A DNA stretch of 4,853 nucleotides from IMG/VR virus record IMGVR_UViG_2706794665_000004, one strand, 5' to 3'. Position numbers and translations under genes: made by a program. Position 1 is the stretch's first letter, and every line of letters begins with the position of its first letter. The notes beneath the pieces were generated by a model. That model searched no databases. It saw only the letters and a list, made by a program, of their open reading frames with translations, and had not been told where the DNA came from. This stretch comes from a virus. Its lineage: Duplodnaviria > Heunggongvirae > Uroviricota > Caudoviricetes. This document shows positions 1 to 4,853 of the stretch, one piece after another.

Positions 1-152
1 GACAAAGTCATCGGGCATTATCTGAACATAAAACACTATCAATAAGTTGGAGTCATTACCAAAAAAACCGCCGAAACGGGTTAAGTGCGGGTGCGTTGAG
101 GATGCCTGACACATCAAAGGTGGCGGGAGATTACTCTCCCGCCTGGTCACTC

Positions 153-2467: not shown

Positions 2468-2881
2468 TTATTCAGTTCTGGATTTTGTCGCCCTGCGTAT
2501 CCGCGCTTTCGCGTTACGCTCAATCTGTATCAGCTTTTCTATATTTCTCCGCCTTTCCTGTTCCTCCTGGCGCAATAGCCTTACATCATCTGCCAGTCTG
2601 GTTTCTCTTTTTGCCACAGAGAGCATCCAGTCAAACGGCTCCACAACCGCACCGCAGATTTTACAGCGGACCTGACGCTCTTTTTCGTCAACCCGGACAG
2701 AGGCGTGATGGCAATATGGTCTTTCCGATGGTTCATAAAGAAAATTAACCTGATTACGTGGGTCATCCTCTTTTACCGGAAATAAAACGATATTGCTTAA
2801 CTCATCTTGGTGATGCTGCCAACTTACTGATTTAGTGTATGATGGTGTTTTTGAGGTGCGAAGCCTGATAGCTAATTTCAT
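2468..2881 (-). CDS. Hypothetical phage protein with putative zinc-ribbon (C-H-H ... CxxC) and basic coiled-coil C-terminus, 137 aa
   Basis: ATG at 2879-2881 immediately follows the TGA of the upstream gene (TGAATG), with AGGAGG 11 nt upstream. Motif PYCHHASVRVDEKERQVRCKICG. TAA stop at 2468-2470. Confidence 0.7.
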   Translation of the reverse strand: MKLAIRLRTSKTPSYTKSVSWQHHQDELSNIVLFPVKEDDPRNQVNFLYEPSERPYCHHASVRVDEKERQVRCKICGAVVEPFDWMLSVAKRETRLADDVRLLRQEEQERRRNIEKLIQIERNAKARIRRATKSRTE

Positions 2882-3304
2882 TCACAGTATCGCCTCCTGA
2901 AAATTACCCTGATAGAAAGCCAGTACACGCTGCATAGCTTCGCTCTTCCGGCACTCGCGACAGATTATATTCAGGCGCCTGTCGTAGCGGCGTATTTCTC
3001 CGTCAGGTAATGACCAGATAAGGTCCGGATCAACAACAACCGGTTTCCTCACCTTTACTCTCGAGAGTTTTTTGCGGGCGCTTTGCCAGTCCTTGCGAGC
3101 CTGTTCAGACGGGAATAAGCCGTAGCCAGAATTATATACATCACCACTTGCGACCAGTTCTATGCATAAGCGACCGACAGACGCACGACTGATACCTGTT
3201 TCATCTGACAACTGCCGAATCGTGACCCGACCGTCCTGATGCACGAGTTCCACAATTCGCGTCTTCAGTTCTTCCCGCTGTTCGGGAGTAAAAGGTTTCG
3301 CCAT
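2882..3304 (-). CDS. Winged-helix/HTH DNA-binding protein, 140 aa
   Basis: ATG at 3302-3304 with strong AGGAGG Shine-Dalgarno (3309-3314 on + strand). HTH-like segment TIRQLSDETGISRASVGRLCIELVASG. Located directly downstream of the DnaC-like gene. Confidence 0.78.
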   Translation of the reverse strand: MAKPFTPEQREELKTRIVELVHQDGRVTIRQLSDETGISRASVGRLCIELVASGDVYNSGYGLFPSEQARKDWQSARKKLSRVKVRKPVVVDPDLIWSLPDGEIRRYDRRLNIICRECRKSEAMQRVLAFYQGNFQEAIL

Positions 3305-3318
3305 AAATCCTCCTGAAA

Positions 3319-4065
3319 CTACTTAACAACCCTCGAATGGCTAACATTCGGACGCCAGCTCTCCCAGTTAAAATTCACCCAGCGCCCGCCGTTCATGACC
3401 ATGCGATCCATCACCCGCTCGCCGAGCAATGTTTTCATCACCTCATAGTTCAGGTTTGTCAGCATCCCCACGCTGCGCATCGACGCTGTCCGGCGATCAA
3501 CAATCTGGTGCAGCACCACCTGCTCGTTTTTCGTCTCGCGCTGAATGCCAATTTCATCAAGAACCAGCAGATCCACTTCGCACAGCTCCCGCAAAAATTT
3601 TTCGCCTGACTGCCCGTCGTCATAGCTGGCGTGCAGGGCGCTCATAACATCAGCCACGGTAACCACAATCACTGTCTGACCGTCTTTCAGCAGGCGATTC
3701 CCGATAGCTGCCGCTAAGTGATTCTTCCCGGTACCAGGTTTTCCGCTGAACGCAAAATTTGTACACCCGGTCATCAGTTCATCGGCGATGGATTTCGCCT
3801 GGCTTAACGCGTATCGCTGGCCGTCGTTCTGCACCTGGTAATTCGCAAACGAGCATTTACGGTGCAACGGCTGGATGCCTGAGCGATTCAGAATTTTTTC
3901 CACCCGCAACTGGCGATTCAGGCGGTTGATCTCCTCGCTACGTTTCTGGCCTTCAGCAAGTTGCCACTCGCGCCACTCCGCTACCGTTCTGAATGGGGCG
4001 GTTACATGTGGCGGGGTCAGTCGGCGGATGCGTTCCAGAACGCCGCCTGTCGCAATATTTTTCAT
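3319..4065 (-). CDS. ydaV: Prophage DnaC-family AAA+ helicase loader / replication protein (YdaV-like), 248 aa
   Basis: Walker A motif GKPGTGKNHL, Walker B-like DLLVLDEIG, overall DnaC/IstB-like architecture. N-terminus MKNIATGGVLERIRRL resembles Rac prophage YdaV as I recall it; symbol is by similarity, not verified. ATG 4063-4065, TAG stop 3319-3321. Confidence 0.9.
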   Translation of the reverse strand: MKNIATGGVLERIRRLTPPHVTAPFRTVAEWREWQLAEGQKRSEEINRLNRQLRVEKILNRSGIQPLHRKCSFANYQVQNDGQRYALSQAKSIADELMTGCTNFAFSGKPGTGKNHLAAAIGNRLLKDGQTVIVVTVADVMSALHASYDDGQSGEKFLRELCEVDLLVLDEIGIQRETKNEQVVLHQIVDRRTASMRSVGMLTNLNYEVMKTLLGERVMDRMVMNGGRWVNFNWESWRPNVSHSRVVK

Positions 4066-4071
4066 GGTCCG

Positions 4072-4748
4072 TTACCCCCTGAAGCCTGGCGGGATCGCAC
4101 TGTCCGGCAACGAGACGGTGTTAACCTGTCGGAGCAACGTCTCAGGCCGAACACCTTTCGGCGCGAACAGGCCCTGGTATTCATTGGCGATGCTGTGTCG
4201 AATCACCTGCTCAGGTGTAAAACCCTGCTGACGGAATTTTTCCAGTTCCCGTATCGCCCCGTTAGCGCCCTGCTCCGTTCGAATCGGTTTTCGCAATGCC
4301 TGTCTGAACCGGACCCACTCATGCCAGAGTGTTTCCGGCAACCAATCGGGCAGCTCAATAGCCTCCGGCTCGAATTTTTTAGACGCTCGTTTTTGGCGAG
4401 GGGGAGATCAGTATTTAGATCTTCCTCTTCCTCTTCCTCTGGTAACGCTTTTTGATCCGTTTGTGTAACGCTGGCAGCGTTACCTTTTCGTTTCAGTTCG
4501 CGTATTTTTGTTACTCGCTCGTTTGTAACCGCCCGTTTTTTTTAGAGCTTTTTCCGTTATGACGTTCAAAGTTAGGTAGAGAAAGCCCTCCGTCATTTTC
4601 GACCAGCCATCCAACCTGAATTAACGCATCAGCAAAACCAGACATAAAAGTGATGCGATCTATTGCACTTTTTGTAACGCCGCGAGCGTTACAATCTGCA
4701 TTACCGTCTATCATTTGTTGATCCGCCCATGCCCAGAAGCGAATAACC
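4072..4748 (-). pseudogene. Disrupted ydaU-like (DUF1376-type) replication-initiator gene: 5' end truncated by IS insertion and split over three reading frames
   Basis: Three consecutive stop-free minus-strand frames tile the region: 4748-4514, about 4541-4380, and 4407-4075. The switches fall at an A8 run (4536-4543) and an A6 run (4375-4380) on the coding strand. Position immediately upstream of the DnaC-like gene matches the ydaU-ydaV arrangement in Rac. The 87-aa ORF's apparent GTG start (4772-4774) lies inside the IS terminal repeat. Confidence 0.6.
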
Positions 4749-4853
4749 TGAGGTAGCCTGAGTTTAACGGACACTCCTTCCTGAAATAGAATGGCATCAG
4801 AAGGAGCTAATAATGAGCAGAAAAACCCAACGTTACTCTAAAGAGTTCAAAGC
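4749..4853 (+). mobile_element. Left end of an IS3-family insertion sequence (IS600-like), continuing beyond the window
   Basis: Terminus begins TGAGGTAGCCTGAG at 4749 (IS3-family ends start with TG). AAGGAG at 4801-4806 and orfA ATG at 4813, about 64 nt from the end, as typical for the family. Assignment to IS600 is from memory of its end sequence and OrfA N-terminus. Confidence 0.8.
4813..4853 (+). CDS. IS3-family transposase OrfA, N-terminal fragment (MSRKTQRYSKEFK...), runs off window
   Basis: ATG at 4813 with AAGGAG 6 nt upstream. N-terminal sequence has the basic, KEFK-containing start typical of IS3-family OrfA HTH proteins. Confidence 0.8.
   Translation, partial: MSRKTQRYSKEFK

Follow-up and report, generated by a model that had tools for sequence, protein, structure and literature searches.

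A replication-initiator gene of a Rac-type prophage has very probably become a genuine, inherited pseudogene in Shigella sonnei, with three independent inactivating lesions. We reached this reading from a stretch of 4,853 nucleotides, called here the window, which is the entire S. sonnei draft contig CWSW01000217.1 (4,853 bp; assembly GCA_001252695.1). The lesions are a change in the length of a poly-A tract, a 10-bp deletion and an insertion of IS600. We describe below the intact form of the gene, the three lesions and their spread, and weigh the readings in which the gene would still be intact, recoded or switched.

Results

The gene and its intact homologues

The two genes that concern us are as follows.

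4072-4748, minus strand: remnant of the replication-initiator gene of a Rac-type prophage (ydaU by position, phrog_2509 type), from alignment with intact coding sequences
3319-4065, minus strand: ydaV, intact, a DnaC-like helicase-loader ATPase of 248 aa, from NCBIfam and Pfam matches

The remnant corresponds to nt 105-789 of an intact gene of 789 nt (262 codons), and its stop codon TAA lies at 4074-4072. We fetched three intact coding sequences of 789 nt each, from E. coli FDAARGOS_944 (WP_038340159.1), from COL60J (WP_001737256.1) and from phage Rac 442/2, where the gene is annotated as ydaU. The gene order is ydaT-ydaU-ydaV around all three, and the COL60J protein is named by PGAP 'phage replication initiator YdaU family protein'. 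In the window, ydaV starts 6 nt past the stop of the remnant. Its product matches NCBIfam NF009043 over the full length (510 bits) and the DnaC equivalog NF005931 (E=1.7e-91), and is also matched by Pfam IstB_IS21 and Bac_DnaA.

The intact 262-aa protein belongs to a cluster of 1,716 members. Its residues 1-262 align with positions 1-277 of the 277 positions in phrog_2509, 'replication initiation protein' (E=1.2e-89), and a second matching profile is phrog_678, 'replication initiation O-like'. From the copy in the window the phrog_2509 match is possible only across three frames, with codons 1-35 missing.

The original prediction had called the gene ydaU-like and had associated it with DUF1376. 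The first part of this label holds in terms of position and of the C-terminal domain. The YdaU of the E. coli K-12 Rac prophage (285 aa, DUF1376) occupies the same slot between ydaT and ydaV as the 262-aa type, both types match phrog_678 and phrog_6451, and the 262-aa homologue shares its C-terminal 124 aa, at 81% identity, with the 285-aa YdaU (DUF1376 type) of another S. sonnei locus (L008). The second part does not hold. The N-terminal 135 residues or so of the 262-aa type are unrelated to those of the K-12 type, its best family being phrog_2509 and not phrog_6451, and the 285-aa YdaU of L008 carries PF07120 whereas the 262-aa homologue does not. A Pfam scan of the intact 262-aa homologue at E<=0.01 returned 0 families, DUF1376 (PF07120) included, and we rejected the DUF1376 label for its N-terminal part for want of such a match. 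An NCBIfam scan of the same protein gave only a sub-threshold resemblance of 19 residues to the DnaT C-terminus (E=0.006; 16 bits, where the cutoff is 201), and a literature search on ydaU function yielded passing mentions only. The 262-aa protein is thus a mosaic that is equivalent to YdaU by position but is not of the DUF1376 type; its N-terminal domain is presumed to serve origin binding.

Three frames of one gene

Translation of the minus strand gives three successive protein-like pieces in three frames, with a homologous coding signal throughout.

4538-4747, minus strand: frame A segment, codons V36-K105, VIRFWAWADQQ...HNGKSSKK, identical to intact residues 36-105
4406-4535, minus strand: frame B segment, R106...LNTD (RAVTNERVTKIRELKRKGNAASVTQTDQKALPEEEEEEDLNTD), a basic/acidic linker that reads RAVTNERVTKIRELKRKG...EEEEEEDLNTD, identical to the intact protein
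4072-4398, minus strand: frame C segment, RQKRASKKFEPEAIELPDW...PPGFRG*, the C-terminal domain common with the DUF1376-type YdaU, from translation

The first switch is confined to 4541-4516 by the frame A stop at 4513 and by the stop at 4544 after which frame B is open. Frame B supplies the codons from 106 to the deletion junction, from 4535 to about 4399-4406, and frame C begins with R (CGC) at 4398 and runs to the stop at 4072. Because neither frame B nor frame C meets a stop across 4407-4208, the second switch is not placeable by reading open frames alone, and comparison with the intact protein, in which the corresponding region reads ...DLPLNPPRQKRASKKFEPE..., is needed to place it.

The original prediction had proposed that an intact homologue be aligned across the frames, and this alignment bore out the idea of a single broken gene, as the three frames fit the 262-aa protein end to end. 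When A8 was set to A6 and TCCCCCTAAA was re-inserted, the window and FDAARGOS_944 differed over 685 nt by 1 synonymous base, and the repaired translation was 100% identical in amino acids to WP_038340159.1 over residues 36-262. In a megablast search of 4066-4853 against 5,426 complete E. coli genomes, 680 genomes covered at least 80% of the query. The alignment begins at window position 4749 and covers 692 nt of the subjects but 684 nt of the window. A four-way DNA alignment of the window with the three intact coding sequences contains exactly three structural differences, which are the A tract, the loss of 10 nt and the end of homology at 4749.

The three lesions

The lesions and the neighboring elements with which they might be confused are the following.

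4536-4543, minus strand: A8 run, first frameshift lesion; most intact homologues have A6 (+2 here), some Shigella A9 (-1 here)
4420-4440, minus strand: AGAGGA x3.5 tandem repeat encoding an E6 tract, no lesion, from TRF on the intact gene
4399-4405, minus strand: surviving 7-bp direct repeat TCCCCCT, the junction of the 10-bp deletion (TCCCCCTAAA lost), from comparison of intact homologues with the window
4375-4380, minus strand: A6 run, unmutated, the K-K of ...ASKKFEP... in frame C, not a frameshift site
4746-4748, minus strand: GGT, one copy of a 3-bp target-site duplication (gene nt 105-107), from both flanks in S. sonnei locus L004
4749-4853, plus strand: left end of IS600 with the terminal inverted repeat TGAGGTAGCC... 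and the orfA start at 4813, from identity to IS copies

The A8 and A6 runs are present on the coding (minus) strand at 4536-4543 and 4375-4380, and three frames are indeed in use, as had been noticed from the sequence at the start. The claim that the frame switches at both homopolymers survives for A8, where the intact homologues differ from the window, but not for the A6 run, which is unmutated; a 10-bp deletion takes its place. Nor would a single-base indel at each site restore the frame, since the second site needs 10 bp, and the first site is one base away only from A9 and two bases away from A6.

At the first site, frame A reads AAA AAA AAC and then meets a stop 8 codons on, at 4513-4511. 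The tract is A6 in all three annotated intact genes. A pattern scan with free tract length matched 16 metagenome contigs and 2 GTDB representatives, and A6 was found in 17 of these 18 copies, the exception being A7 in metagenome contig L020; the two GTDB species-representative matches, S. flexneri and one E. coli, are both A6, and both carry the 11-bp deletion described below. Among the 5,426 complete E. coli genomes, 617 matched an A6 query. None of them matched a synthetic A8 or A9 query exactly, and the best hits to these queries were the same A6 records. An in-frame A9 (KKK) occurs in six loci, three of S. dysenteriae (L033-L035) and three S. sonnei contigs (L036-L038), and an intact 261-aa S. 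dysenteriae gene (WP_119163372.1) carries it. The 10 S. sonnei loci that resemble the window (L004-L013) all have A8.

Two bases separate the A8 allele from the common A6 form, and one base separates it from the A9 form of Shigella. The window has the same single synonymous difference from the A6 form (FDAARGOS_944) and from the A9 form (S. dysenteriae), so that both A6->A8 and A9->A8 are compatible with the data. None of the homologues compared has A8 in an otherwise intact gene; the allele was found only together with IS600 and the 10-bp deletion. We infer that A8 would have arisen by replication slippage on a coding homopolymer whose functional alleles are A6 or A9, with a shift of the frame as the result.

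At the second site, GATC is followed by TCCCCCTAAA TCCCCCTCGCC in the intact homologues but directly by TCCCCCTCGCC in the window and in 10/10 S. sonnei loci. These alignments show that the second frameshift lesion is the loss of 10 bp between direct repeats of 7 bp, and that the A6 run is not changed. The deletion takes out a single unit of the imperfect tandem duplication TCCCCCTAAA/TCCCCCTCGC, probably through slipped-strand mispairing, and shifts the frame again. The run at 4375-4380 is also A6 in FDAARGOS_944, COL60J, S. dysenteriae, S. flexneri and the metagenome copies, and it is AAACAA in Rac 442/2 and others. The real lesion lies about 20-30 nt nearer the 5' end of the gene than this run. 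As a consequence, the junction peptide first written for the repaired protein, '...DLPLAKNERLK-KFEPEAI...', is chimeric: AKNERLK is an out-of-frame reading of the DNA for 'NPPRQKRASK'.

Both indels of the window sit in a low-complexity basic/acidic linker (KSSKK...EEEEEE...LPLNPP) between the N- and C-terminal domains, beside the GAAGAG repeat. This repeat varies in length among loci without breaking the frame. In CCAGAG(GAAGAG)nGAAGAT, n is 1, 2, 5 or 6 and in frame each time (noted in L006, L007, L009, L010, L018, L030 and L033); four 4.8-Mb S. sonnei assemblies have n=5 or 6, the window has n=2, and proteins with E4 to E10 tracts are known.

The third lesion was absent from the original prediction. 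It is the IS600 at 4749, which removes codons 1-35 from the remnant. Window positions 4748-4853 match several IS copies of S. sonnei loci at 100% identity. The complete element of L004, 1,262 bp long, shares 99.8% identity with elements annotated as 'IS3-like element IS600 family transposase'. The element is inserted after gene nt 107, and the end of the contig falls inside it, so that the window shows one side only. In L004, IS600 is bordered directly on its far side by the first 107 nt of the gene, and the flanks, ...GGGAAGGT|IS600|GGTTATTCGC..., overlap by GGT. Since the gene flanks and the GGT duplication are both there in L004, the IS600 insertion is a simple one that split the gene after codon 35. 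This insertion, with its GGT duplication after nt 107, cuts codons 1-35 and the promoter from the remainder of the gene. In four other loci (L008 and L011-L013), what lies beyond IS600 is not the 5' end of the gene but the truncated ydaV of a second Rac-like prophage, of the DUF1376 type; this arrangement points to recombination between two prophages, mediated by IS600.

Spread of the lesions among genomes

All three lesions were found in 10/10 fetched S. sonnei assemblies, and the A6 run at 4375-4380 is unchanged in each. The fetched set consists of 10 different GCA assemblies with contigs of 55 kb to 4.86 Mb, short-read contigs included. One of the loci (L011) has two A8 copies on a single contig. 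We found the exact 87-aa product that reads across the IS600 junction and the A8 tract in 481 index blocks and on 492 contigs, of which the longest measures 4.86 Mb. It has been deposited as 'putative bacteriophage protein [Shigella sonnei]', FORC11_0721, and the identical fragments include FORC11_0720.

Homopolymer sequencing or assembly error had been offered at the start as the alternative to genuine pseudogenisation, the frame of the genome being really intact at one or both sites. There are some grounds for caution, because the window, a draft contig built from short reads, has IS copies at its ends, it has one probable assembly artefact elsewhere (2810-2859), and the isolated A7 in metagenome contig L020 could be a sequencing error. 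However, A8 and the 10-bp deletion are identical in 10 independent assemblies of varied contiguity, and the second lesion, as a deletion of 10 bp, is unlike a homopolymer miscount. The length of A8 was consistent between the independent assemblies (10 compared, at the assembly level), which is not the mark of an error. Because the same lesions recur in 10 assemblies and the exact A8-containing fragment on 492 contigs, we exclude sequencing error as the source of the frame switches and give an intact frame in the genome practically no probability. Genuine pseudogenisation, which had been named first, is what the three lesions relative to the intact homologues and their presence in 10/10 assemblies bear out.

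Different lesions of the same gene were met elsewhere. S. flexneri SFBU1023 (L031) and E. coli ECMA0423 (L032) have a separate 11-bp deletion (GGGCGCTAACG) between GGGCG repeats, at gene nt ~591-601, and the open reading frame ends at 210 codons. Slipped-strand mispairing is the probable cause of this deletion as well as of the 10-bp one, since each takes out one unit of a short imperfect tandem duplication. The three S. sonnei contigs with A9 (L036-L038) carry a second allele with an intact 5' end, in which IS600 lies at nt ~405 instead of 107. From these alleles, the same initiator gene has decayed several times, independently, in Shigella-type genomes.

The rest of the contig

Window positions 2860-4853, which include the remnant, are 100% identical to L004. 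At 2810-2859 (context 2382-2881), 50 nt of an IS1 end have taken the place of prophage DNA of the same length. On the right side of this point the identity to L004 is 100% over about 2 kb, and on the left there are 4 SNPs in 428 nt, after which homology is lost. A 137-aa ORF that covers the point (2468-2881) was found in this one contig only. The segment looks like a scaffolding or gap-fill chimera of two paralogous prophages; a real IS1 remnant is less likely.

Window positions 1-62 are the 3' end of an IS1, 100% identical to copies of 'IS1-like element IS1A family transposase'. With its start in IS1 and its end in IS600, the contig is a short-read one that breaks off at a repeat at either end. 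The module at 488-2381 has a DUF4014 match, weak HNH and DUF551 matches and a 221-aa ORF, where other S. sonnei loci have QueH instead, and the hok region at 77-487 shows an identity of only 90.7% in this comparison. The module and the diverged hok region indicate either prophage mosaicism or the chimera at 2810-2859.

Discussion

Can the A8 site be recoded?

A ribosome or a polymerase might slip at an A8 tract followed by C. Programmed -1 ribosomal frameshifting or transcriptional slippage at A8, followed by a second event downstream, would yield a functional initiator from the split frames. The heptamer A_AAA_AAC is in phase in frame A (4536-4543 plus C4535), and a slip of -1 would lead back into the ancestral frame. 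A_AAA_AAC is the frameshift site of IS1 insAB' as well, and transcriptional slippage is supported by long A/T runs, for example in Shigella mxiE and in dnaX of Thermus. The A8C tract gives the IS1 heptamer in the correct phase. Moreover, the 111-nt stretch past A8 folds better than its shuffles (z=-3.05).

However, the only stable hairpin, of 8 bp, starts about 52 nt downstream of A8, and at the canonical spacing from A8 (5-9 nt downstream) the search for a stimulatory RNA structure found only a 5-bp GUUAC/GUAAC stem. Of the usual elements of a -1 frameshift signal, the heptamer is there but a stimulatory structure and a conserved arrangement are not. The intact homologues have a single ORF with A6 or A9, and no lineage compared has kept A8 where the gene is otherwise intact. 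A 10-bp deletion without a slippery sequence accounts for the second frame change, with the unchanged A6 run 20 nt beyond it, and IS600 has cut the remnant off from its start codon and promoter. Thus, unlike the IS1 and slippage systems, the arrangement is unconserved, has no close stimulatory structure, relies on a deletion for its second change and stands in a gene split by IS600. The original prediction had set programmed frameshifting aside as a remote third choice, and with single-ORF homologues, a non-slippery second site and a split gene, we agree and regard it as having next to no chance of being correct. Incidental low-level -1 slippage at the A8 site alone is conceivable at most.

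Is the linker a switch?

Another reading of the A8 tract is that the poly-A is a phase-variable contingency site, ON with A6 or A9 and OFF with A7 or A8, and that S. sonnei is in the OFF state, later frozen by the other lesions. It would be compatible with pseudogenisation as the present state. Tracts of A6, A7, A8 and A9 are found among close alleles that are otherwise 0-2 SNPs apart, the in-frame A9 may be a frame-restoring change, and adjacent repeats of the same linker also vary in length. On the other hand, A6 is overwhelmingly dominant in E. coli, and a tract of six is short for phase variation. A8 is invariant in the 10 fetched S. sonnei loci, with its product on 492 contigs and no ongoing switching visible, and variation of the tract is limited to Shigella lineages known to accumulate pseudogenes. 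We consider this reading very unlikely, though less so than error or programmed recoding.

A wider version of it would take in the whole linker. There are 6 copies of the heptamer GTAACGC in the window, where 0.58 would be expected, and 0 of 200 shuffles reached 6. Five of the 6 copies are within the initiator remnant, as 9-bp perfect palindromes (4441-4484 and 4672-4694). These palindromes may be candidate binding sites of the initiator, with a phage origin inside the initiator gene, and an origin so placed is the arrangement of lambda O, to which we liken the candidate sites. One could then imagine the linker, with its poly-A, GAAGAG, TCCCCCTAAA duplication and GTAACGC palindromes, as a hypermutable region that toggles prophage replication, where A8C leaks product by a -1 slip. 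If this were true, S. sonnei would represent a frozen OFF state and not random decay. We hold it to be a speculation with a chance even slightly smaller than that of the simple phase-variable site.

An ordinary pseudogene of Shigella

We return to the inherited pseudogene as the preferred reading. Intact full-length orthologues exist in relatives, the disabling lesions are defined, and the lesions are reproducible across genomes. Of the pseudogenes of S. sonnei, 50% are directly due to IS insertion and a further 12% combine an IS with another inactivating mutation (Hawkey et al. 2020, PMC7373316). The case described here resembles those IS-plus-indel pseudogenes in the same host, in having IS600 together with frameshifts, in being fixed widely and in having intact E. 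coli orthologues (Hawkey et al. 2020, PMC7373316). There is no essential difference from them, except that the gene is prophage cargo and not a metabolic gene, and that its lesions are known from sequence only. We conclude that the feature is of a kind already known, an ordinary triple-hit prophage pseudogene produced by routine Shigella decay.

The remnant has presumably lost its function. A counterpoint to a dead locus is that ydaV, downstream, is intact and that expression of the C-terminal 89-codon ORF (4341-4072) by itself is possible in principle. We infer that selection on the defective prophage was relaxed during the reductive evolution of Shigella.

The finding carries little weight outside annotation. 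There, the locus should be entered as a single pseudogene, interrupted by IS600 and frameshifted. This matters to the extent that some deposited S. sonnei records split the locus into two or three 'hypothetical' or 'putative bacteriophage' proteins. The case also teaches that a reading based on open frames only can misassign a frameshift to the nearest homopolymer. The length variants of the poly-A and GAAGAG tracts might serve as minor typing markers. For Shigella itself, the locus is a clean worked case of how a prophage gene decays through IS insertion and slipped-strand indels.
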